Assembly (NCBI GenBank): GCA_965204725.1
Contig: OZ242005.1
Span: 1,664,001 to 1,728,000 of the forward strand
Reading direction: 5' to 3'
From: Candidatus Latescibacterota bacterium
GTDB lineage: Bacteria > Latescibacterota > UBA2968 > UBA8231
DNA length: 64,000 bases
Part shown: positions 14,606 through 30,785 of the stretch, one piece after another
Layout of the letters: each line of letters opens with the position of its first letter
Position numbering within the stretch: the first letter of the stretch is position 1
The notes under the pieces: generated by a model
Database searches by the model: none
What the model was told of the DNA's origin: nothing
Seen by the model: the letters and a program-made list of their open reading frames with translations, nothing else
Made by a program: the position numbers and the translations under genes

Positions 14606-14767
14606 ATGCCAAGTAAGCTGAGTATTTTCTCTGAGTTATGGGATTTTATGAAGGTCCGCAAAAAGTGGTGGTTGGGGCCGATATTCGCCGTTTTGGTGTT
14701 GCTCGGGTTGTTAATTGTCACAACCCAAGGGTCGGCGGTGGCACCCTTCATTTACACGCTGTTTTAG
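14606..14767 (+). CDS. DUF5989-like small membrane protein
   Basis: MPSKLSIFSELWDFMKVRKKWWLGP...QGSAVAPFIYTLF; GGAGG upstream; not in the ORF track. Confidence 0.85.
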   Translation: MPSKLSIFSELWDFMKVRKKWWLGPIFAVLVLLGLLIVTTQGSAVAPFIYTLF

Positions 14768-14791
14768 TGCTCATAAAATTTTTTATGTAAA

Positions 14792-15304
14792 ATGAACCTC
14801 AAAGAACTCATCCACGAAATCCCCAACTTCCCGCAAGACGGCGTCTCGTACAAAGACATCACGCCGCTGCTCAAAGACCCTGCTGGTTTCTCGGCCGCCG
14901 TCCAAACCATGCTGGCCCCCTTTGCGGACGCCCCCATTGACCTAGTCGTAGGCATAGAGGCCCGCGGCTTTGTATTCGCAACCCCGATCGCACTCGAATT
15001 GGGATGTGGTTTTGTGCCAGCGCGCAAACCGGGGAAGCTACCGGCGGCCACCTTGCGCCGCGAGTACTCGCTCGAATACGGCGAGACGGCCGTAGAAATC
15101 CACACCGATGCCATGGCACCCGGACAAAAGATATTGGTCGTGGATGACGTTTTGGCCACCGGCGGGACCTTGGCGGCGACCTGTCAAGTGCTCGAAACAC
15201 TAGGGGCGGTTGTCGCGGGCATCAGCGTCTTGGCCGAGCTGCGCTTTCTAGCCGGCCGCGACCGCTTGCCCGGATATCAGTTAGAAACCGCTATCGTCTA
15301 TTAA
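14792..15304 (+). CDS. apt: Adenine phosphoribosyltransferase
   Basis: GIEARGF, RKPGKLP, YSLEYG, VDDVLATGGT. Confidence 0.96.
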   Translation: MNLKELIHEIPNFPQDGVSYKDITPLLKDPAGFSAAVQTMLAPFADAPIDLVVGIEARGFVFATPIALELGCGFVPARKPGKLPAATLRREYSLEYGETAVEIHTDAMAPGQKILVVDDVLATGGTLAATCQVLETLGAVVAGISVLAELRFLAGRDRLPGYQLETAIVY

Positions 15305-18604: not shown

Positions 18605-19538
18605 ACTGACCATCAAAGAGCTGCTAGCCACCTACGGCCAGCAACTCCGCCTCAAGCTCATCGCCGGCGCCAAGGGGCTTGAGCGCACCATCAACAACAG
18701 CGACATCCATCGCCCGGGCTTGGCTCTGACGGGCTTCGTCGAGCTGTTTACCTTGGATCAGGTGCAGTTGTTGGGCAATACCGAAGTCGAGTACCTGCGT
18801 AGCTTACCCCCAGCGCGGCGGCGGCAAGCCCTCAAAATCATCTATCAATTCGACATCCCCTGTGTGGTCTTGACCGGTCGGGGGCGCGTTCACTCCGAGC
18901 TGCGGGTGCTAGCCGACGAGTGTGCGGTCCCGCTGCTCAAGTCCGAATACAGCACGGCTGAGCTGACCCATCTCATCCGCTTTTATCTCGACGAAGTGTT
19001 TGCCCCTCAAGTGTCCGTGCATGGGACGCTGGTTGATGTCTCGGGAGTCGGGCTGCTCTTTCGCGGTCGCAGCGGCATTGGCAAAAGCGAGGTCGCCTTG
19101 GATTTGGTCGAGCGCGGGCACCGATTGGTGGCCGACGATATGGTCATCATCAACCGCAAGCCCCAAGGCATTTTGGTGGGGCGCAGCTCGGATATGCTCC
19201 AAGATCACATTGAAATTCGCGGCATCGGCATCTTAGACGTAAAAAAGATGTTTGGCGCGTGGAGAACTCGGCGGCAGAAGCGGGTGGAGATATTGGTCAA
19301 CCTCGTTGATTGGGACGAAAAATATGCTTATGAACGTCTTGGCCTTGAAGACAACAAGGTGGTAATCCTCGGCGTTGAGGTGCCCGAGGTCTTCATACCG
19401 CTGTTTCCCGGCAAAAATATCACGGTGCTCGCCGAGACCATAGCGATAGATTACCTCTTGCGCTTGGACGGGGAGTACGCGGCCCGGTCGTTTAGCCAGC
19501 GGCTCCAAGAGCGCATTAAGGCGGGCAAAAAACCATGA
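18597..19538 (+). CDS. hprK: HPr kinase/phosphorylase
   Basis: IHRPGLALTG, GRSGIGKSE, GHRLVADD, IEIRGIGI. Confidence 0.95.
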   Translation: MSELTIKELLATYGQQLRLKLIAGAKGLERTINNSDIHRPGLALTGFVELFTLDQVQLLGNTEVEYLRSLPPARRRQALKIIYQFDIPCVVLTGRGRVHSELRVLADECAVPLLKSEYSTAELTHLIRFYLDEVFAPQVSVHGTLVDVSGVGLLFRGRSGIGKSEVALDLVERGHRLVADDMVIINRKPQGILVGRSSDMLQDHIEIRGIGILDVKKMFGAWRTRRQKRVEILVNLVDWDEKYAYERLGLEDNKVVILGVEVPEVFIPLFPGKNITVLAETIAIDYLLRLDGEYAARSFSQRLQERIKAGKKP

Positions 19539-20491
19539 TGACGCTCGGGGTGGCCGGCCATGCCCGCGAGGTGGCTGTCCATCGGGCGGCCTTGCAGGAG
19601 TGCCGCGATATTCAGTTGGTATATGACGCCGATTGCGCCGCGGTCTTAAAGGAAAAAGTAGATGGGCTGGTGCTGCTGCACGTGGCCGATAAATCGCATT
19701 GGATCGGCACGGCCCTCGCGGCTGGTCTTCCCGTCATGGCAACCCATCCCGTACCGGAGTTTGCCGATAGCCGTCCGTCTAAGAAGCGATCTGAAAACTC
19801 TGGTGGTCGTCCCTTGGGGCTCAACGATCCCGGCTGGATTCCCGCTTTCGCGGGAATGACGGGGACTTTTGCGGGAAAGACGGAGACTTTCGCGGGAGTG
19901 ACGGAGGTGGATTCTCAGACAGCGTCTAAGGTGTGTGTGCTGTCGCTGGGGCGGCATACGCGCTTTTGCTCGGCTTTGGTCCGACCGGGCGTAGCGCATT
20001 ACTCGTTGGAGCTTTCTTTTAATTCGGCTTCCTTCGATTGCATGGACCGCGAGACGATTTGCAATCAAGCGGCCTTGGATATGTGCGACCTGCTGTTGGG
20101 TGCTTGGGGGGCGGTCGATGTGCTGTACAGCAGGATGCGCAACTTCTTTCATCCTAGTCGCATGGAGGATGTGTCAGTCGCGCTGTTGAGGATGCGCAAC
20201 GGCGTCGAAGGCTCGGTCGCGCTCTTCGACGTTACGGGGGGGAGCGCGGCGTTGCGAATTCGGTTGTATGCAGCGGACGAAATCGTCGATGCGTCTTGGC
20301 CTTGGGCATGGGAAGCAGACGATCTGATGGCGTACTATCGCAATTTCATCGCCTGTATCCAAGGGTGTGCCCAGCCGCTGTTGGGTTTGGGGCAGGTAGC
20401 CGAAAGCTATCGGCTTTTGGAATGGATGCGCATGTCGGCGAGACAAGATGCGGTTTTGAGCCGCAGAGATGTGAGCAGAGATGTGAAATGA
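19535..20491 (+). CDS. Divergent Gfo/Idh/MocA-like protein carrying an in-frame MITE
   Basis: Weak similarity (H...ALAAG.PV; EDVSVALLRMRNGVEG); 53 aa come from the inserted repeat. Confidence 0.55.
   Translation: MMTLGVAGHAREVAVHRAALQECRDIQLVYDADCAAVLKEKVDGLVLLHVADKSHWIGTALAAGLPVMATHPVPEFADSRPSKKRSENSGGRPLGLNDPGWIPAFAGMTGTFAGKTETFAGVTEVDSQTASKVCVLSLGRHTRFCSALVRPGVAHYSLELSFNSASFDCMDRETICNQAALDMCDLLLGAWGAVDVLYSRMRNFFHPSRMEDVSVALLRMRNGVEGSVALFDVTGGSAALRIRLYAADEIVDASWPWAWEADDLMAYYRNFIACIQGCAQPLLGLGQVAESYRLLEWMRMSARQDAVLSRRDVSRDVK
19768..19928. mobile_element. MITE/REP-type element, 159 bp plus TA duplication
   Basis: Imperfect TIRs TAGCCGTCCGTCTAAGAA / TTCTCAGACAGCGTCTA; internal CTGGATTCCCGCTTTCGCGGGAATGACG plus two degenerate copies. 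Confidence 0.7.
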
Positions 20492-20573
20492 TAATGTCTT
20501 ATAAAATTTTTTATGTAAATAAAAGAAAAAAAGAAACTCAAAACCGTGTAGAAAAAAATGGCGTTTTGGGTAT

Positions 20574-20669
20574 GAGATACTTCGCTACGCTCAGTATGAC
20601 CAGGGCTGGGGCACGCAGCCCCCGTCTGTGTGTCATGCTGAGCGTAGCGAAGCGCAGTCGAAGCATCTC
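20574..20669. repeat. REP-like inverted repeat pair
   Basis: GAGATACTTCGCTACGCTCAGTATGAC ... GTCATGCTGAGCGTAGCGAAGCGCAGTCGAAGCATCTC. Confidence 0.75.
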
Positions 20670-20707
20670 TACATGCTTTCGAGTCATTTAGGACAGCTAT
20701 ATATATA

Positions 20708-21244: not shown

Positions 21245-22993
21245 ATGGCGAGTACTATTCGCGTTCTCGACGAAAGCCTCATTGGAAAAATCGCCGCTGG
21301 TGAGGTCGTGGAACGACCGGCCTCGGTCGTGAAAGAATTGGTCGAAAACTCAATTGATGCCGGGGCCACGAAAATCTGCGTGGAAATCAAGGCGGGCGGC
21401 AAGCAGTTGATCGTCGTGACCGACGATGGTTCGGGCATGAACCGAGAGGATATCGCTTTGTGTGTGCGGCGGCATGCCACGAGCAAGATGGCTTCAGCGG
21501 CCGACCTGTTCTGCATTCAGACGCTAGGGTTTCGCGGCGAAGCCCTAGCCAGCATTGGGGCGGTCGCGCACTTGGCGATTGAATCGCGCACCCAGCAAGA
21601 CGAGGTGGGGACGCGCTTGGTCGTGGAAGGGGGGATCGAGCGAGAAATGCACAGCATGGGTCGAGCGCACGGCACGACCATTGTGGTAAAGAACCTGTTT
21701 TTTAATACGCCCGCGCGGCGCAAGTTCCTCCGCTCCGTCAATGTGGAAGCTCGCCACGTGGCCCAGACCCTCATCCATTTAGCCGCTGGCTACCCGGCCC
21801 TTGGCTTTGAACTAGCACACCAAGATCGCCAAGTCTTGAGCTACGCCCCGGCATCGCGGCGAGCGCGGGCGGCCGAGCTGTTGGGCATTCCAGTCGCCGA
21901 ACTGTTGGACTTGGCGCACGAGGAGGAGGGCCTCAAAATCGAAGGGGTCTTGGCCGGTCCCGAGTGCTGCGGCCCCAGCAAGGGCAAGCAATATATCATT
22001 GTACAGGGGCGGCCCATTTTTTCGCGCCTGATGGTTAGGGCAATTCAGCGGTGCTTTGAGGGCCTGCTGCCCGAAGGACACCATCCGGTATTCATGCTCT
22101 GGATCGATATGGATCCCCAGAAAATCGACGTCAATGTCCATCCGACCAAGCGGGAGATTCGCTTGGCCAACGAAGGGCAGGTGGTTGCGGCCATTGAAAA
22201 CAGCGTCCGGCACAGCTTGCGCCTGCCCGAGGTGCAATCCTTTGTCTATGCTCCTCCTCGTTCCAGCGATCCCAACAGCGATGGGGGGGACGAGCCGGTC
22301 GCGGTCCGCGTCGGCGAAGGCGAGCCGGCGTCCCCGGTGTTGCACAGCCTGCCCACGCCCGGGGATGCCGACGACCAACTCGCGATGACCTTCGTCGCCC
22401 CGAGCGAGGCCAAAGTCGCCGTTGTCCAAGACGCCGCGATGTGGCAGGTCCACAATCAGTACATCCTCGTCGAGGTGGCCGATGGCTTGCTTTTTGTCGA
22501 TCAGCAGGCCGCGCACGAGCGGATCAACTACGACCGGGCCATGGCGCAAATCGATGGCGCGACCGGGGAAAGCCAGCAGTTGCTCTTTCCCATCCAGCTA
22601 GAAATGGGAGCCGCGGATTTCGAGGTATTCAACCAAGTGCGGGCGGACGTTGCCAAGCTGGGCTTTGTCGTGCGGGACTTTGGTGCCCGGACGGTGTTGG
22701 TGGAAGCCATTCCCGCTGAATTGGAGAACTTTGGCGAAGGCGATGCTTTTTATCAGCTATTGAACGACGTGCGCGATGGCCAGCATTCGGGCCACGCTTG
22801 GCGCGAAGCACTTGTCTTGGCTTATACGCGCAAGGCGAGCATCCAGAAGGGACAACGACTGAACGCCGAGGAGCAGGCGCATTTGATCGCTGCATTGCTC
22901 AAGGTGGAGCGACCGCACGTAAGCCCGACGGACAAGCCGATTATGGCGCGGATGAAGTTGAGCGATATGGAGCGGCTGTTGCGGAAGTTCTAG
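21245..22993 (+). CDS. mutL: DNA mismatch repair endonuclease MutL
   Basis: IAAGEVVERPASVVKELVENSIDAGA, GFRGEALASI, DVNVHPTK, DQQAAHER. Confidence 0.96.
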   Translation: MASTIRVLDESLIGKIAAGEVVERPASVVKELVENSIDAGATKICVEIKAGGKQLIVVTDDGSGMNREDIALCVRRHATSKMASAADLFCIQTLGFRGEALASIGAVAHLAIESRTQQDEVGTRLVVEGGIEREMHSMGRAHGTTIVVKNLFFNTPARRKFLRSVNVEARHVAQTLIHLAAGYPALGFELAHQDRQVLSYAPASRRARAAELLGIPVAELLDLAHEEEGLKIEGVLAGPECCGPSKGKQYIIVQGRPIFSRLMVRAIQRCFEGLLPEGHHPVFMLWIDMDPQKIDVNVHPTKREIRLANEGQVVAAIENSVRHSLRLPEVQSFVYAPPRSSDPNSDGGDEPVAVRVGEGEPASPVLHSLPTPGDADDQLAMTFVAPSEAKVAVVQDAAMWQVHNQYILVEVADGLLFVDQQAAHERINYDRAMAQIDGATGESQQLLFPIQLEMGAADFEVFNQVRADVAKLGFVVRDFGARTVLVEAIPAELENFGEGDAFYQLLNDVRDGQHSGHAWREALVLAYTRKASIQKGQRLNAEEQAHLIAALLKVERPHVSPTDKPIMARMKLSDMERLLRKF

Positions 22994-23220: not shown

Positions 23221-23625
23221 AGCTTTGGCTATACGGCCCTGCACTTGGCGGCGGGGGCAGTAGATTATCGGGATAATAATACGTATTTTCCTGGTCGTCT
23301 TGAGATAATCAAGTATCTGGTGGGTCAGGGGGCGGATGTGAATGCTACGAACGCCTTCGGCTGGACGCCGCTGCACGAGGCGGTGGTGCGGGATTTTTTG
23401 GAGGGGGTGAAGGTGCTTGTGGGTCAGGGGGCGAGTCTCACGGCTACGAACAACGGCTGGACGGCGTTGCACCGGGCGGCGTGGTCGGGTCGTTTGGAGG
23501 CAGTGCAGTATCTAGTGGGTCAGGGGGCAAGCCGCACGGCTACGACCAACGATGGCAAGACGCCTCGGGCCTTGGCGGTGGAGAAAGGTCATACGGCGGT
23601 GGTAGCGTATTTTGACACGCTGTGA
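23221..23625 (+). pseudogene. Ankyrin-repeat protein, 5'-truncated
   Basis: Frame reads FGYTALHLAA...FGWTPLHEA...NGWTALHRAA...GKTP; first possible start (TTG 23245) lies inside repeat 1; in-frame stop at 23182. Confidence 0.75.
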
Positions 23626-23739: not shown

Positions 23740-23920
23740 TTGACCGCCCCTAGCGCACGGAACGATATTGAGGGTTAAGGTGAAACACGTCGCGGCTGAC
23801 CTACCGGCAGAGTAAACCGGGCGTGGAAGTTTTACGAGCGGCGTTGGTTGGGCCGATTGCGTAAGCGCGGCCACCGGGTCTAACATCCCCGGCTTTCGCG
23901 GCCAACGCCGCACTTTTTTT
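23740..23920 (+). ncRNA. Candidate structured small RNA unit 1 (C4/CI-like three-way junction) with promoter and U-tail
   Basis: TTGACC-N18-GATATT; 13-bp stem 23838-50/23899-911 enclosing two hairpins; T8 tail. Confidence 0.5.
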
Positions 23921-23965
23921 ATGGGGCTTGGCTTGGCACACACTTCACAGACAGGAGCCTAAACG

Positions 23966-24148
23966 ATGCGGTTATTGAGCGGGTTGACCGCGCCTTGCCG
24001 CGGTCCGTATCCTGTTGGTCAGTTTGGCAGGGACGGCCCTATTGCGCCGTCCGCCAAGCAGGTTGCGCGCCGCGGCTGCTTCACTGGCAGAGTAAACCGG
24101 GCGCGTTTTTTTTGCCTTCCCCGTCCATCCCCGGATTTTGTGCAGTGA
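23966..24148 (+). CDS. Small Ash/Kil-like ORF overlapping RNA unit 2
   Basis: AGGAG RBS; GLT-x6-Y...ARFF pattern arises from reading through the promoter and terminator. Confidence 0.35.
   Translation: MRLLSGLTAPCRGPYPVGQFGRDGPIAPSAKQVARRGCFTGRVNRARFFCLPRPSPDFVQ
23984..24113 (+). ncRNA. Candidate structured small RNA unit 2
   Basis: TTGACC-N18-TATCCT; two hairpins, the second shared with unit 1 with compensatory changes; T8 tail. Confidence 0.5.
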
Positions 24149-24178
24149 ACATTCAAGCTGGTTTTGACTATCGGTTAG

Positions 24179-24252
24179 CACGTGTTTGGCTTGCCGAACT
24201 TTTTGGATCGCAAAAAATCCATGTTGGCGTCACGTGTTTGGCTTGCCGAACT
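24179..24252 (+). repeat. Perfect 22-bp direct repeat CACGTGTTTGGCTTGCCGAACT, two copies
   Basis: Copies at 24179-24200 and 24231-24252. Confidence 0.9.
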
Positions 24253-24278
24253 AGTCGAGGGAAATTTGCCGCGGTCCC

Positions 24279-24449
24279 TTGACCCGCCCTAGCGCGGCAT
24301 TGCTCTCTGCGTGGGAGTGCTTTTGCACAAGCGACAAAACGGCCAACGTCTTGCCCGTGCTCCGGCCAGAGCACACGAAGGGCGGGATGGTTGCTTGTGC
24401 ATTTTCTTGCAAAAGCCTTGTCGGTGGGCGCATCGACAAGGCTTTTTTT
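24279..24449 (+). ncRNA. Candidate structured small RNA unit 3 with strong terminator
   Basis: TTGACC (poor -10); TGCACAAGCGAC/GTTGCTTGTGCA stem with nested stems; terminator 24411-24449. Confidence 0.45.
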
Positions 24450-24455
24450 ATGCGG

Positions 24456-24487
24456 ATACTACCGATAACGGGCATTATCGGTAGTAT
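24456..24487. other. Palindromic dif-like tyrosine recombinase site
   Basis: ATACTACCGATAA-CGGGCA-TTATCGGTAGTAT: perfect 13-bp arms, 6-bp asymmetric spacer, ATAA-N6-TTAT core. Confidence 0.65.
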
Positions 24488-24535
24488 AAAATGAGCACCG
24501 GAGGCTCGTTGAGCGGCGGCCTATTTTGGGTCCGA

Positions 24536-24757
24536 TTACGGCAAGCGCGACAGGATCAGCGTCCCCAGTGCCAGCAAGGTCGCGATTTGCATTCCAACCA
24601 ACCAGCGCGTGAGCGTGGCGACTTCTTTCCGCACTTCACTGATGGACCGCTCAATGCTATCCAAGCGGATGTTGGTCTGGCGGTTTTGCTCAACGGATTG
24701 CTCGGCAATGCCTTCTAACCGCCCAATTCGGCGGTCGTGGGTTAGCGGTTCGCTCAT
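24536..24757 (-). CDS. Small coiled-coil protein with C-terminal TM helix
   Basis: 73 aa, AAGGAAAG RBS; RIGRLEG...LDSIERSISEVRKEVATLTRWLVG. Confidence 0.75.
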   Translation of the reverse strand: MSEPLTHDRRIGRLEGIAEQSVEQNRQTNIRLDSIERSISEVRKEVATLTRWLVGMQIATLLALGTLILSRLP

Positions 24758-24929
24758 GCGGCTTTCCTTTCGGTTGGGTCCTCAATTTCATATCCAAGAT
24801 CATTCGCGTCAAACGCGGCGGCAAAATGCCGCGATGTTCGCTATATTTGTTTTATTCTTTAGCCACTGTTACAAACATCGCGGATATTAAAGCTAATGCA
24901 CCAGACCTCTAATCCTGTAAGCCCATTCA

Positions 24930-25910
24930 ATGAGTGAGATGCTCAACCCAGTCGTCCGCAAGCTGACGCCAACGCCCGCGTTGGTAGCCGACGACCCGCT
25001 GGAACAATTTCTCAGCGGCCAGCTCAGCGAGCGCACTCGGCGGGCGTATTACGCCGACCTCGAGCACTTTTTTGCATCCATCGGCATAGAACTAAAGGAC
25101 GTTTCCCTCGCCATCTTACAAACCATCACCTTTGAGCATGTGGTCGCCTTTAGAAATCAACTCGCCAGCGAAGGCTACAAGCGGAGCAGCATCAATAGAA
25201 AACTGTCCAGCCTGAAGTCGTTGTTCAAGATGTTGGTCGCTTTAGGCCACATCGGGAAAAATCCCGCTGACTCCGCCTTGGTACGCGGCTACAAATTGGA
25301 CGAAACGCTGGTTGGCAAAGCACTTCCCAATGTGGTGTTGAACAAACTACAGCAAGCCATTGCCGAGGAAGAAAACGACTTAGTCCGCACACGCGATGCG
25401 GCCATATTCCATTTGCTCACGTTTGGCGGGTTGCGCCGCTCCGAAGTGGCGGGCGTCGCTTGGGAGGATATATCCTTGGAGGGCGTCTTTCACATCCTGC
25501 GCCTGCCCGAGACTAAATCGGGCGTGACGCAGGAGATCAAACTGCAAAACGTCGTCCTCCATCATCTCGAACTATACAAACAACAGCTTGAGCAGGCGGG
25601 CTTGCCGACGACGGGCAAGGTCTTCATCAGCCTGTCGCGCAACCAATCTCGCGGCCAGCCGCTGACCGATCAGTCGGTAAATCACATCGTCAAGAAGTAC
25701 GCCCGGCGCACCGGCCTCCCCCAAAACGTCACCGCGCACATGTTTCGCCATACCTGCTGCACCCTAGCGATTGAAGGCGGCGCCAAGCCCCAGCAAGTGC
25801 AGGCTCACTTGCGCCACAAGGACCTAAAGACGACCATGCGCTACTACGAAAACCGCGAAAAGCTGCTCGATAATGCGTCGGATTATATTAAAGTGGGTAT
25901 GGGGAGTTGA
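24930..25910 (+). CDS. Tyrosine recombinase (Xer-like)
   Basis: N-terminal SERTRRAY...SINRKLSSLKSLFK domain; catalytic GLRRSE, K, HMFRH, HLRH, TTMRY. Confidence 0.92.
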   Translation: MSEMLNPVVRKLTPTPALVADDPLEQFLSGQLSERTRRAYYADLEHFFASIGIELKDVSLAILQTITFEHVVAFRNQLASEGYKRSSINRKLSSLKSLFKMLVALGHIGKNPADSALVRGYKLDETLVGKALPNVVLNKLQQAIAEEENDLVRTRDAAIFHLLTFGGLRRSEVAGVAWEDISLEGVFHILRLPETKSGVTQEIKLQNVVLHHLELYKQQLEQAGLPTTGKVFISLSRNQSRGQPLTDQSVNHIVKKYARRTGLPQNVTAHMFRHTCCTLAIEGGAKPQQVQAHLRHKDLKTTMRYYENREKLLDNASDYIKVGMGS

Positions 25911-25984
25911 TTTTTTTAGTTTTTTGTTTACATATTAAATCTTACACGACATTTACTTGCAAGCTGTTGTTGTGCCCCCTCGCG

Positions 25985-26499
25985 TCACTCGGCACTATCC
26001 AAGTGCCGCTGAAAGGTCGCCAGATCGGCGGCTTGCACCGCTGTGCGATGCAACTGCTTGAGCCGGTGCAAATCGTCCAGCGCGGCAATGCGGGCGGCCA
26101 ATGAATGGGCGGAGGCCGGCCCAAAGCGAATCTCCAACACGTCAAGAATATCTTCAACGGCGCGTTGTCGGCCCCCCTGCTCAAGGCCCTGTTCAAGGCC
26201 CTGCTCAAGGCCCTGCTTAAGGCCCTGTTGGGTAAGGTATTGGGCAAAGGATGATTCGCGCATGATCGTGTCCATAAGACCCTCCTGAGAAATAATACGT
26301 TGAATGGTGGTCCACTCGTACGCTAACCCACTCAGTGGGTCCAACCGCACGGCTTGGGTCGCCTGAATGCACTGGCGCAACCACGCTTCCGCGGCCATGC
26401 CCGACGGACCGCCACATCGTCGCGTTGGAGGGTGAAGCGGACGAAGTCGTCGGGGTAGGTTTGGATTAGGTGTTTGGAAATGGTATCGTATTCGGCCAT
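25985..26499 (-). pseudogene. Rpn/DUF4351-family gene with nuclease core deleted; internal small ORF 25985..26275 intact
   Basis: MAEYDTISKHLIQTYPDDF N-terminus is out of frame with the C-terminus (span 515 nt); QGLEQGLEQG repeats, LEIRFG; AGGAGG before internal ATG 26275. Confidence 0.7.
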
Positions 26500-26533: not shown

Positions 26534-29461
26534 CTACACCACGATATTGACGATCTTATTCGGCACCCATATAAACCGCTTTATCGCCGTTTCATCGGCC
26601 ACGTACCGCTGGATGCTCTCCATGGCCAGCACCAAAGATTTTATCTGTTCCTCGCCAGTGTGGACGGGCACTTCAACTTGTCCGCGCATTTTGCCATTGA
26701 CCTGAATGGGCACTACGATCAGGTCCTCGGCGGCCTTTGCTGCATCCCACTGCGGCCAACTCTGACGACTGAGGCCGGCCGGCCCAAAGCCGGCCAACTC
26801 CCATAGTTCCTCGGCAAGATGCGGCGCAAAGGGCGCGAGCAGGAGCAAGAAGGGCTTGGCGACAGCCGGCGGCACCTCGTCTAAGGACACCAATAGATTG
26901 TTTAGCTCGATCAAGGCGGCAATGGCCGTATTAAACCGCAGCCCCTCTATGTCCTCGGTCACCTTTTGGATGGTTTGGTGCAGCTTTCTTTCTAGATCCG
27001 ATTTCAGCGCAGTACTCGTCCCTATTTTTATGCATCGATCCGAATCGACAAAGTTGCGCCAAACGCGCTGCAAAAAACGCTGCATCCCGCGGATGCCTTC
27101 CATGCTCCACGGCGCACTCGCTTCAAGCGGCCCCATGTACATTTCGTACAGCCGCAGGGTATCCACGCCAAATTCCTCGCCGATTTCTTCGGGCGGCAAC
27201 CCGTTTTTATAGCGTTTGCCCATCTTGCCGAAGGACCGATGCAGCCGCTTCCCCGTCCCCTTCTCAACAGGCTCCCCGTCGCAAAACTCGACCTCGCGGA
27301 TGTCGATATACACGCCGCGATCATCCTGAAAAGCATCGGCCGTCATCATGCCTTGGTTGAACAGCTTCTTAAACGGCTCGGGCGTCGATACGTGGCCCAA
27401 GTCGTAGAGGGCCTTGTGCCAAAACCGGGCGTAGAGCAGGTGCAACACGGCGTGTTCCGCCCCGCCGATATAGAGATCAACGGGCATGAAGTAGCCTTCC
27501 TTGGTCGGGTCGCAGAAGGCTTCTTCGTTGTGCGGGTCGATAAAGCGGAGGTAGTACCAGCAAGAACCAGCCCATTGGGGCATGACGTTGAGCTCGCGCT
27601 GGCAGGCCACCCCGTCGATTGCTACCGTCGTCCACTCTGCGCCGGCCCGATGCAGCGGCGGCGAAACGGGTTGGGCGGGATCGTCGGAAGTCTCCGGTCT
27701 GAAATCCGCTAGGTCCGGCAGCACCACCGGAGGCCCGGTCGCGACGGAATATCCATCGGGATGCGTGGCGAGCGGAAAGGGTTCGCCCCAATAGCGCTGC
27801 CGCGCAAAGGTCCAGTCGCGCAGCTTGTAGTGTACCGCCGCTTGGCCGCGCCCTTGGGCTTCGAGGGCGGCGACAATCTGGGCTTTGGCCGCGGCTGATT
27901 CTAAGCCGTTAATGGCGTATGGATTATCGCTATCGCCCGCGGCCGGTACGGACGGCGAATTGATCGCGGTCCCCTCCCCAGCATACCACCCGGTCGGGCC
28001 AGCACTAGCCAGCGCAAGCACGGGGTCGCCTTCCCCGCCGGCAACCACGCGCACAATATCCAAGTTATAAGCGGTGGCAAAGGCAAAGTCGCGCTCGTCG
28101 TGGGCCGGCACGGCCATAATAGCACCCGCGCCGTAGTCCATGCTGACGTAGTCGGCGACAAAAATGGGAATTTTTTGGCCATTGACTGGATTGCGGGCGT
28201 AGATGCCGGAGAAGATCCCGGTTTTTTCCTTGGTCTCATCGGCCGTGGCGACGGCCGCCTGCGCTACGTACTCGGCTACGGCTTGCCGGATGGGCACCCC
28301 TCCCCCGCTCCCCTTCCACTGCTCAGGCGTCCCATCGGGCCAAGCACTCGGAACCAAATAGGCTTCTGTGGCGGGATCGACCAGCGGATGCAGCGGGGCG
28401 ATGGCCATGAAGGTCGCCCCAAAGAGCGTGTCGGGGCGGGTCGTGAACACGGGCAACGGCCCGATGACCGCGTCGCTTTGCGGGTCGAGGACATCAAAGC
28501 ACACTTCCGCCCCTTCGCTGCGGCCGATCCAGTTGCGCTGCATCCGCTTGATGGGCACCGGCCAATCGAGCCGGAAGGGCTCGCCGTTGCGATCCTCCAG
28601 CTCGGCGTCCAAATCCTCTAAGAGCCGCTCGGCGTAAGCTGTTATGCGCATCGTCCACTGCCGCAATGGTTTGCGATACACCGGGAAATCGCCGCGCTCA
28701 CTGCGGCCTTCGTTGGTCACCTCCTCGTTGGCCAACACGGTCCCCAAGCGAGGGCACCAGTTGACGACAGCCTCTTGCTGGTACGCCAATCGGTAGTTGT
28801 TCAGCACCGCTTGCCGTTGGACCGCGGTGAGCGCAGACCAAGCGGCCTCCGAGTTGAGCGTTTGGCGGTCAACGGGCGACAAGGCCCTACCGGCCGCAAA
28901 TTGGGCCTCTAAGTCGGCGAGGGGCTTGGCCCGCCCCTGTATGGAGCGTCCTTGGCCGTCTTGCCAGCACTCGTCTTCGTCGAAATAGCTATTGAAGAGT
29001 TGGGCAAAAATCCACTGGGTCCAGCGGTAGTACGACACCTGCGAGGTGACCACTTCGCGGTCCCAGTCAAACGACAGCCCGAGAAACTGCAACTGGCCGC
29101 GCATGGCCTCGATATTCTGCTCGGTAACGGTCGCGGGATGGATGTTGTGTTCAATGGCGTATTGCTCCGCTGGCAACCCGAAACTGTCGAACCCCATCGG
29201 GTGCAGGACGTTAAAGCCCCGCATCCTTTTGTAGCGGCTGTAGATGTCGCTGGCGATGTACCCTTTGGGATGGCCGATGTGTAGCCCCGCGCCGCTTGGA
29301 TAGGGAAACATATCGAGGATGTAGCACTTGGGTTTGCTACCATCAAACCCAGGATCCCCCGGCCCCAGCGTTTGATAGGTCTGCTCCTGCTCCCAATGGG
29401 ACCGCCATTTGGCTTCGATGGTTTGGAAGTTGTATTGGCTCTTTTTCTCTTTGGTTGACAT
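26534..29461 (-). CDS. leuS: Leucine--tRNA ligase
   Basis: MFPYPSGAGLHIGH, GFDSFGLPAEQYA, TTRPDTLFG, KMGKR; start MSTKEK. Confidence 0.97.
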   Translation of the reverse strand: MSTKEKKSQYNFQTIEAKWRSHWEQEQTYQTLGPGDPGFDGSKPKCYILDMFPYPSGAGLHIGHPKGYIASDIYSRYKRMRGFNVLHPMGFDSFGLPAEQYAIEHNIHPATVTEQNIEAMRGQLQFLGLSFDWDREVVTSQVSYYRWTQWIFAQLFNSYFDEDECWQDGQGRSIQGRAKPLADLEAQFAAGRALSPVDRQTLNSEAAWSALTAVQRQAVLNNYRLAYQQEAVVNWCPRLGTVLANEEVTNEGRSERGDFPVYRKPLRQWTMRITAYAERLLEDLDAELEDRNGEPFRLDWPVPIKRMQRNWIGRSEGAEVCFDVLDPQSDAVIGPLPVFTTRPDTLFGATFMAIAPLHPLVDPATEAYLVPSAWPDGTPEQWKGSGGGVPIRQAVAEYVAQAAVATADETKEKTGIFSGIYARNPVNGQKIPIFVADYVSMDYGAGAIMAVPAHDERDFAFATAYNLDIVRVVAGGEGDPVLALASAGPTGWYAGEGTAINSPSVPAAGDSDNPYAINGLESAAAKAQIVAALEAQGRGQAAVHYKLRDWTFARQRYWGEPFPLATHPDGYSVATGPPVVLPDLADFRPETSDDPAQPVSPPLHRAGAEWTTVAIDGVACQRELNVMPQWAGSCWYYLRFIDPHNEEAFCDPTKEGYFMPVDLYIGGAEHAVLHLLYARFWHKALYDLGHVSTPEPFKKLFNQGMMTADAFQDDRGVYIDIREVEFCDGEPVEKGTGKRLHRSFGKMGKRYKNGLPPEEIGEEFGVDTLRLYEMYMGPLEASAPWSMEGIRGMQRFLQRVWRNFVDSDRCIKIGTSTALKSDLERKLHQTIQKVTEDIEGLRFNTAIAALIELNNLLVSLDEVPPAVAKPFLLLLAPFAPHLAEELWELAGFGPAGLSRQSWPQWDAAKAAEDLIVVPIQVNGKMRGQVEVPVHTGEEQIKSLVLAMESIQRYVADETAIKRFIWVPNKIVNIVV

Positions 29462-29480
29462 AAAAATCCTTATAAGACAC

Positions 29481-30785
29481 TTATGGATAGAGACGCTGCA
29501 TAGTGCGCGGAAAGGGCACGGCCTCGCGCACGTGCTTGAGGCCGCAGACCCAAGCAACCACCCGCTCGATTCCCATGCCAAAGCCCGCATGCGCTACCGA
29601 GCCGTAGCGCCGCAAGTCGAGATACCAGCGAAAGGCTTCGGGGGGCAATTGATGCGTGGCGATTTTGTGCTGCAAGACCGCGAGATCGTCTTCGCGTTGC
29701 CCGCCGCCGATGATTTCCCCGTACCCTTCGGATGCCAACAGGTCCATGCACAGGGCCAAGCGGCGGTCTTGGGCATCTTCCTTCATGTAGAATGCTTTGA
29801 CTGCCCGGGGATAGCGGTGGACGAAAACCGGCGACTCAAACTCGGACGCGAGGACGGTTTCGTCGTCGCCACCCAGATCGCGCCCCCAGACAATGTCGCT
29901 GCCTAGGGCCGTCAACCGCTCGACCGCTTCGTCGTAGGTTATGCGCGGAAAGGGCCGGCGGACCTGCTCCAGCTTGGCGGTGTCGCGGTCGAGCACCTTT
30001 AGCTCTTCGCGGCAGCGGTCGAGCGCCCGGTCGAGCACGTACAAGACCAAGTCCTCGGCCAAGTCCATAGCGGCCGCTAGATCGCAATAGGCCATCTCCG
30101 GCTCAATCATCCAGAACTCGGTTAGGTGCCGGCGGGTCTTGGACTTTTCAGCCCGGAACGTCGGCCCAAAACAATAGACCTTGCCCAAGGCCATGGCGGC
30201 CGCTTCCATATAGAGCTGGCCGCTCTGGGTCAAATAGGCCGTGTCGCCGAAGTACTCGGTCTCAAACAGGGTCGAGGTCCCCTCGCAGGCCGCGGGCGTA
30301 AAAATCGGCGCATCCACTAAAACAAAGCGGTGCTCTGCCATGAAGTCGCGGCAAGCCTGGCAGACTTCGCTGCGGATTGTGAGAATGGCCCGAGGCCGGC
30401 TCGACCGCAGCCACAAGTGGCGGTGATCGAGGAGAAAGGACACCCCGTGTTCCTTGGGCGCGATGGGATAGGGCTCGGCCTCCTGCACGACGTCGAGGTG
30501 GCTCACCCCCATCTCGTAGCCGATGGGCGCCCGGGCCTCCCGCCGCACTTGGCCGCGGACTACGATCGACGATTCTTGGGGCAAGTGAGCGCAGCGCTCG
30601 AATAATTCGGGCGCGACATCGCCCTTAAAAACAACGCATTGCACCACGCCGCTGCCGTCGCGCAACTGAAGGAAGTGCAGTTTGCCGCTCGAGCGCTTGT
30701 TGTACAACCAACCACGCAACTCGACTTCTCGCCCCTCGTAGCGGCCAATGTCAGCCACCTGAATCGACTCCATTTTCTCACCCAT
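29481..30785 (-). CDS. asnS: Asparagine--tRNA ligase
   Basis: [37 protein letters not shown]; alternative start at 30773. Confidence 0.96.

Follow-up and report, generated by a model that had tools for sequence, protein, structure and literature searches.

The Xer-like recombinase referred to here, for convenience, as Xer3 is encoded in a 64,000-nucleotide stretch of the chromosome of a Candidatus Latescibacterota bacterium (contig OZ242005.1, positions 1,664,001 to 1,728,000; hereafter the window), and its gene, xer3, lies downstream of a palindromic site, P, that has the layout of a dif site. Judged by sequence, the pair appears to carry every feature of an Xer module. Xer3 and P are an addition to XerCD/dif and lie inside an invertible bracket of dif sites. 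It is proposed that they constitute a third, lineage-specific Xer module at the chromosome terminus of one Latescibacterota family, in which each arm of P would be bound by one Xer3 protomer, and cleavage and strand exchange would take place at the borders of the 6-base spacer. Since P is a single-copy site, such a reaction could pair it only with the P of a sister or dimeric chromosome, which would be dimer resolution in type, or with a P mimic on another replicon. Two inverted, recombinationally active XerC/D-type dif-like sites, whose XerD-like arms point inward, enclose the module. That P is the recombination site of Xer3, and that it acts on sister or dimer chromosomes and on replicons carrying P mimics, is regarded as an even bet.

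P is a 32-mer, ATACTACCGATAA-CGGGCA-TTATCGGTAGTAT, whose arms are complementary at 13 of 13 positions around an asymmetric spacer. An earlier note on this DNA had described it as a palindrome with perfect 13-bp arms, an asymmetric 6-bp spacer and no T-run, and the sequence confirms this, the bases directly after it being AAAATGAGC. The 32-mer is matched once in the window at up to three mismatches (and not at all in 100 shuffles), and this is also the sole match at the same threshold in the whole genome of 5,432,979 bases (G000). Its designation as an Xer/dif-like core site likewise holds, as P has two arms of about 11 bases, a 6-base centre and ATAA/TTAT inner ends, and is located at a switch in GC skew. 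When 36 distinct P sites were aligned and oriented by their spacers, the ATAA/TTAT ends and several outer positions proved invariant or near-invariant, the spacer was largely conserved, mostly as C[A/G]G[G/T][C/T]A, and the variable arm positions were 7-9. The two arms are inequivalent, since position 9 can be G or T and its partner, C24, is constant. Arm cells are paired in 88.5% of cases and the arms covary, with 26 double-change cells vs 10.9 in shuffles, a value reached by none of 500 shuffles. The pairs 7-26, 8-25 and 9-24 are unpaired in 10-13 of the 36 sequences and the ATAA/TTAT ends never vary; the unpaired positions are more easily reconciled with recognition of two half-sites by a protein than with an obligatory hairpin. 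Both spacer orientations are present across the family, which suggests that P functions independently of its orientation relative to the gene. Two loci (L040 and L044) have the 6-base spacer alone in inverted orientation, between flanks that are collinear with those of other species. A contig of run X1, in which P on the opposite strand is linked to position 24540, might conceivably represent a spacer-flip or deletion variant.

Xer3 scores 95.8 bits with the Pfam family Phage_integrase and 46.4 bits with Phage_int_SAM_1, the N-terminal SAM-like domain. Its gene starts 442 bases downstream of P, in agreement with the distance of about 440 bp noted previously, and the reported completeness of the catalytic residues is also upheld: R169, K196, H270, R273, H296 and Y305 align to the residues that are catalytic in the XerD-type protein of the same genome and are invariant in 12 family members. 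The protein falls far below the equivalog cut-offs for XerC (TIGR02224, 131 vs 335 bits), XerD (TIGR02225, 116 vs 330), XerS (NF003462, 92 vs 267) and XerA (NF040815, 109 vs 220), and shares 25-26% identity with the XerD-type and XerC-type proteins of the same genome. Among solved structures, the closest to it in sequence are E. coli XerD (E = 1e-15) and Pyrococcus XerA. A HMMER search of 1.84 billion representatives returned only 52 clusters at E <= 1e-30; the relatives of 40-47% identity that were looked up stem largely from ocean-survey (Tara) and other environmental sequence collections, and none was found in viral contigs. A homologue in a Rhodothermales metagenome-assembled genome (MAG) is preceded, just upstream of the matched coding region, by CTACTTCCGATAA-CCCTTA-TTATCGGAACCGC, which has the form CCGATAA-N6-TTATCGG. 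No dif-like site was found nearby at that locus.

Orthologues of Xer3 (E <= 1e-60) are present in single copy in 59 of 75 genomes of the Latescibacterota family f1 and in none of 92 genomes from 13 other families of the phylum. The related genomes are Candidatus Latescibacterota MAGs, many of them chromosome-level, and the sequencing runs that contain the stretch carry the label of sponge or marine metagenomes. All 23 loci of the window's genus have P upstream of xer3. In a second, independent set of 51 loci, searched at up to nine mismatches, it is upstream in all 25 close loci and in 19 of the 26 distant ones, and across the family its core usually occurs once per genome; the check that had been suggested, for a single-copy site linked to orthologues of the recombinase, therefore has a positive outcome. 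P commonly lies 95-200 bases from xer3 and is intact at distances of 28 to 2466 bases (874 among them), which speaks against a purely promoter-bound operator. The insertion of about 330 bases that G000 carries between P and xer3 is absent from most relatives in the alignment. Xer3 is 60-69% identical between genera, compared with 57-65% for LeuRS and 31-45% for MutL at the same loci, a level of conservation that fits vertical descent under purifying selection. The cassette of the other genera is minimal, at about 1.2 kb, and consists of a dif(+) site, P 10-50 bases further on, xer3 and a dif(-) site, with the XerD-like arms of the flanking sites pointing inward. Integration via P was considered for two loci with extra DNA between P and xer3 (L058 and L060) and rejected, as each has one P and no hybrid sites.

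Cumulative GC skew along the chromosome (C1) reaches its global maximum within the 5 kb bin that ends at 1,690,000 and contains P, and the skew at the locus changes from about +0.07 on the left to -0.05 on the right. Over 40 kb on each side, the sign of the skew switches exactly at the locus in seven of seven other Xer3 genomes from four genera (G001, G010, G129, G137, G138, G132 and G005). The window's genome and all seven relatives have one P per chromosome, at the terminus. The features of the locus are collected in Table 1.

Table 1 Features of the xer3 locus (positions are those of the window unless a contig is named)
Feature	Position	Strand	Description
Third direct dif-like copy	G000:C1:1662257	+	1.7 kb before window start
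Further dif-like copy	14764..14795	+	Direct repeat
orf318	19535..20491	+	Left-hand flank, no Pfam family; trades sides with leuS when inverted
Site A	20492..20523	+	XerC-like arm, 6-base spacer, XerD-like arm TTATGTAAAT; left border of invertible segment
A-B segment	20524..25922	none	orf176, mutL, ankyrin gene, P, xer3
mutL	21245..22993	+	Inside invertible segment in window's genus
P	24456-24487 (C1:1,688,456)	none	13-6-13 palindrome, ATAA-N6-TTAT core, spacer CGGGCA
73-aa open reading frame	24536..24757	-	Inside the ~330-base insertion separating P from xer3; no family match
Conserved block GGCAAAATGCCGCGATGTTCGCTATATTT	24820..24848	+	Between P and xer3; from locus alignment
xer3	24930..25910	+	326-aa Xer-like tyrosine recombinase, R-K-H-R-H-Y set complete
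Site B	25923..25954	-	Degenerate (2 mismatches to core pattern); right segment border
leuS	26534..29590	-	Conserved right-hand flank across family

Xer3 is not the only recombinase of its kind in the genome, which encodes three tyrosine recombinases by PF00589. An XerD-type gene at 0.72 Mb scores 343 bits, above the TIGR02225 cut-off of 329.6, and an XerC-type gene at 3.17 Mb, downstream of a topoisomerase gene, reaches 313 bits, just under the TIGR02224 cut-off of 335; an FtsK gene is also present. The XerD model (E <= 1e-50) is matched in 75 of 76 family genomes, mostly by two hits of about 340 and 285 bits. A single hit is found in genera g20-g22 and in two g13 genomes, and the XerC-like gene of g22 (G164, G166 and G167) is strongly diverged (148-165 bits), its match to the model containing a stop codon. 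The earlier note had read the locus as a possible single-recombinase system with a lone enzyme, and had itself named an xerC/xerD pair together with an asymmetric dif there as the finding that would speak against this. Both are largely present, as asymmetric dif-like sites lie 3.9 kb upstream of P (site A) and 13 bases past the xer3 stop codon (site B), so that the lone-system reading is unsupported: Xer3 does not replace XerC and XerD, and P is not the only dif-like site. What stands of that interpretation is a conserved, terminus-located pair of site and enzyme, which supplements XerCD/dif where a replacement had been envisaged. The other option offered there, that P is the resolution site of an integrated element, is possible; copy-number and viral-contig searches found no sign of recent mobility.

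A genome-wide listing of ATAA-N6-TTAT in G000 contains 26 sites, and three asymmetric sites with a TTATGTAAA arm, all on the + strand, lie within 27 kb to the left of P. The arms of P are unlike both arms of the flanking dif-like sites, which makes three arm types alongside three Xer-family genes in the genome. The flanking sites are taken to be putative XerC/D-type dif sites on account of their layout, of the TTATGTAAAT arm, which is like those in tables of pdif sites, and of a genome of another family without Xer3 (G083), which has a single site of the flanking kind at a clear skew switch. A (+) dif-like site is present upstream of xer3 in 22 of 24 close and 12 of 24 distant informative loci, and a (-) site within 250 bases after it in 22 of 24 close and 18 of 25 distant loci; matches in the opposite orientation number only one upstream and two downstream. 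The extra dif-like copies are polar, with (+) copies left of xer3 among housekeeping genes and (-) copies right of it in relatives, and they converge on the terminus. The XerD-binding sites in the terminus region of B. subtilis offer a parallel for such polar copies. An array of integrative mobile elements exploiting Xer (IMEX), in which the three direct dif-like copies would bound nested integrated elements, is ruled out by the housekeeping genes between them (mreB, mreC, HU, ychF, cystathionine enzymes, prs and HPr kinase), and the cassette itself departs from an IMEX in that it encodes a recombinase and has inverted flanking sites. The stretch just right of site A (window 20558-20700) has a very high contig depth in all four runs, with repeat-type joints and a 21-base inverted repeat (20580-20652), and probably represents an element that is present in many copies in the metagenomes.

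The segment between sites A and B has inverted repeatedly. In the window's genus the left dif-like site lies 2.5 kb further out than in other genera, enclosing orf176 and mutL in a segment of about 3.5 kb. When loci were oriented by xer3 and their flanking genes compared, the order orf318 / A / orf176-mutL-P-xer3 / B / leuS was found in 13 loci of the genus and in G000, and the order leuS / A / same inner segment / B / orf318 in 10 loci, the latter being what inversion between A and B predicts. On a 22-species tree built from mutL and xer3 DNA (L028, L047, L048 and L074 were omitted for their incomplete flanks) the orientation changes at least six times, five of the changes being forced by well-supported branches. 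The two states are scattered on the tree like shuffled labels, and very close sisters differ in orientation (L041/L042; L032/L037; L031 vs L036 and L072). As the inverted repeats that border the segment are only 34-50 bases long, site-specific recombination is a likelier cause than homologous recombination. The spacer and XerD-like arm travel with the inner segment in three sister comparisons, and these few differences would place the crossover at or outside the XerC-like arm. No inversion was found in 25 informative loci of other genera, in all of which mutL lies to the left or leuS to the right. Opposite-strand joints between A and B were not among the rows listed for the Logan contigs of four runs, a type of evidence that cannot show absence. 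The segment in the window also contains, between mutL and P, a gene for an ankyrin-repeat protein (window 23245-23625); ankyrin genes are reported to be common in sponge symbionts.

P has counterparts outside the locus, including on an element that lacks an integrase. Three small contigs of the closest relative, G046 (C9, L216:1-20000; C12, L218; C6, L217), are versions of one phage-like element, and C9 was assembled as a tandem dimer of a unit of about 10.3-10.4 kb. The unit encodes a portal protein, an S78 prohead protease, an HK97-type capsid protein, a large terminase and a GH108 lysin, and no tyrosine recombinase was found on it by Pfam (9 ORFs, open reading frames) or by tblastn (best E = 0.8). 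Each unit contains one P mimic, AAACTAACGATAA-ATCCTA-TTATCGTTCGTTT, which has the same base as the window's P at 11 of 13 arm positions and differs in its spacer. By parallel with plasmid and IMEX sites that borrow host Xer recombinases, and with the dif mimic of the Legionella mobile element LME-1, this points indirectly to P-type sites being recombination substrates that may be used in trans. Four more intergenic P-like palindromes with other spacers are present in G000 (C1:3848689, 4093143, 278071 and 3473534), and those at 3,848,689 and 4,093,143 adjoin terL remnants of the same element family. One of the extra sites is beside a DNA methylase gene and two are beside genes for leucine-rich repeat (LRR) proteins, and the site at 4093143 has, like P, a terminator before it and a TTTTTTTAT(AT)GCGG flank. 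A second contig of G000 (C2, 51.7 kb) carries two copies of a stretch resembling the 854-aa ORF of the element, about 34.9 kb apart, and may be a concatemer of a circular element.

Binding and catalysis by Xer3 at P, and a biological role there, are what the arrangement of site, enzyme and terminus would predict, and a number of observations weigh on the other side. P was not found at up to nine mismatches in 7 of the 26 distant loci; of these, L055 has a divergent P core and L068 and L076 are short of upstream sequence, which leaves L052, L056, L057 and L067 without a convincing inverted repeat in the 400 bases upstream. The P0126 cluster, whose members are about 46% identical to Xer3 and comprise 36 metagenome loci, has no adjacent palindrome in the 19 loci scanned for cored palindromes or the four scanned for inverted repeats. 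Sites of the form CGATAA-N6-TTATCG with other spacers recur in the genus, so that another protein could read the motif, and both the arm covariation and the spacer-only flips would also be expected from hairpin-templated mutation. The genome also has XerC/D-type genes, with canonical dif-like sites at the same locus, which makes a second dimer-resolution system look redundant. The position at the terminus is itself less than clear-cut in G000, where genome-wide skew has several local extremes and dnaA (4.25 Mb) is off the global skew minimum (3.70 Mb). A fuller version of the proposal is put forward tentatively, as having perhaps one chance in a few: the locus would be an invertible dif cassette served by three recombinases, in which Xer3 and P provide a second layer of resolution or a control on XerCD, and integrase-less phage-like elements would exploit Xer3 via P mimics.

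Among the competing explanations the one that survives best, though it is unlikely, holds that xer3 and P are a selfish or domesticated cassette of the dif-module type that became trapped between inverted XerC/D sites, where XerCD flips it and never excises it. The cassette would have no role in host segregation, and P would once have served multimer resolution of the ancestral element. Bracketing by inverted XerC/D-type sites is the layout of the pdif modules of Acinetobacter, for which inversion has been shown (PMC13141974). The segment has indeed inverted at least six times in the genus, and P-like sites are carried by a phage-like element and adjoin terL remnants. Another kind of recombinase also occupies the slot: three genomes without Xer3 (G167, G135 and G133) encode there a Cre-like recombinase, whose best solved relative is Cre (E = 2e-19) and which is 23% identical to Xer3. 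In G167 and G135 it is a 319/309-aa protein encoded between mutL and leuS, adjoining dif-like sites, and is preceded by a palindrome of the ATAA-N6-TTAT layout (GTTACTTGGTATAA-TATCCC-TTATAGAAAGTAAC and TTAGTTTTGATAA-CGTGAA-TTATACAAACTAA, respectively), so that a recombinase with a palindrome recurs at this slot with unrelated enzymes, a recurrence that also counts in favour of P being the recombination site of Xer3. The Cre-like gene is multi-copy and clearly mobile in genus g13 (4-12 matches each in G133, G134 and G135) and sporadic elsewhere; nine copies examined outside the terminus have no such palindromic site. Against an origin of this kind for xer3 stand its single copy, its restriction to one family, its constant place between mutL and leuS and a conservation like that of LeuRS. 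No match in viral contigs and no second or plasmid copy was seen, and long-lasting purifying selection on an enzyme with its full catalytic set calls for an explanation.

The surroundings of the Cre-like genes vary. In G133 the gene adjoins a near-symmetric dif-like site and no palindrome was seen; this site (C1:1835975-1836005; L105:1500-1530) has XerD-like arms on both sides, ATTTACATAA-GAAATA-TTATGTGAAC, and the skew there goes from positive to about zero only. G167 has two inverted dif-like sites about 21 bases apart (C1:1057603-1057690; L107:1440-1530), then the Cre-like gene and a further inverted dif-like site, and its local skew is weak.

Somewhat less probable again is that P serves only as an autoregulatory operator and that the substrates of Xer3 are the flanking dif-like sites, where it would be an invertase or would partner XerC or XerD. 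P does mostly lie 95-200 bases upstream of xer3, near the conserved block of Table 1, which may be the xer3 promoter region, and the flanking sites hug the cassette and recombine. Genera g20-g22, with one strong XerD-type hit and a diverged XerC-like gene, are where Xer3 could take the place of a partner. An operator does not need the exact geometry of a core site or a conserved spacer, however, and P stays intact at 874 and 2466 bases from the gene. The flanking sites have canonical XerC/XerD arms, one site of this type on its own marks the skew switch in G083, which is devoid of Xer3, and the 25 informative loci of other genera show no inversion despite having the enzyme. It is highly improbable that P is a structural hairpin (a terminator, a repetitive extragenic palindromic (REP)-like element or an RNA stem-loop) unlinked to the recombinase, since, for all that its arms are perfect and covary, that its spacer alone flips between collinear flanks and that in G000 it follows by 6 bases a terminator-like hairpin and T-run (seen by eye and not listed by the terminator scan), with one other P-like site sharing this flank, the site occurs in a single copy, in strict linkage with one gene throughout the family, tolerates unpaired positions next to constant ATAA/TTAT ends, is followed by no T-run on either strand in a terminator scan of window 24200-25000 that found nothing, and has no match in an Rfam search of window 23900-26100.

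The accepted requirement for resolving chromosome dimers is either XerC plus XerD at a single asymmetric dif or a single recombinase with a single site. The locus described here presents a third layout, in which paired inverted dif sites flip a segment that contains a core repair gene, mutL, and in which an extra Xer enzyme and a symmetric site are nested. Recurrent site-specific inversion at a chromosomal terminus is unusual even if Xer3 should not act at P. If it does, Xer3 and P would be a compact, self-contained recombinase/site pair from an uncultured phylum, a natural case of several Xer systems at a single terminus, and a new host factor open to possible exploitation by mobile elements; on the tentative three-recombinase version this would amount to independent IMEX-type parasitism on a previously unknown Xer enzyme. 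A literature search at the level of listings, supplements aside, found no description of dif or Xer in Latescibacterota, nor of a recombinase nested between inverted chromosomal dif sites.

Among known systems Cre/loxP of phage P1 also employs a single recombinase and two symmetric 13-base arms, with an asymmetric spacer that gives direction. Xer3 differs in being Xer-like, and P in having a 6-base spacer with Xer-type ATAA/TTAT ends. In streptococci and lactococci the Xer-like recombinase XerS shows genetic linkage to a dif-like site of its own at the terminus (PMC2731167), and to that extent Xer3, linked to its own terminus site, is alike. Unlike XerS, which replaces XerC/D, Xer3 coexists with XerC/D-type genes and dif-like sites, and the arms of P are symmetric. 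XerH/difH, archaeal XerA/dif and XerL/dif similarly pair one recombinase with a site at the terminus. The hosts of these three enzymes lack XerC/D, unlike the present genomes. XerL of Legionellales was discovered via LME-1, which carries a dif mimic (PMC9765430), and the P mimic on the phage-like element matches this arrangement. A parallel to the bracket itself is provided by the pdif modules of Acinetobacter, which are cassettes bounded by inverse XerC/D-type sites, with documented inversion between them (PMC13141974). The segment between A and B is likewise bounded by inverse, putatively XerC/D-type sites that recombine, and the XerD-like arm TTATGTAAAT resembles the pdif XerD arms tabulated there. 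The pdif modules are plasmid-borne, move between replicons, occur many per replicon and carry accessory genes, whereas the single cassette described here is chromosomal, lies at the terminus in syntenic position between mutL and leuS, and carries a recombinase together with its predicted site and, in one genus, mutL.

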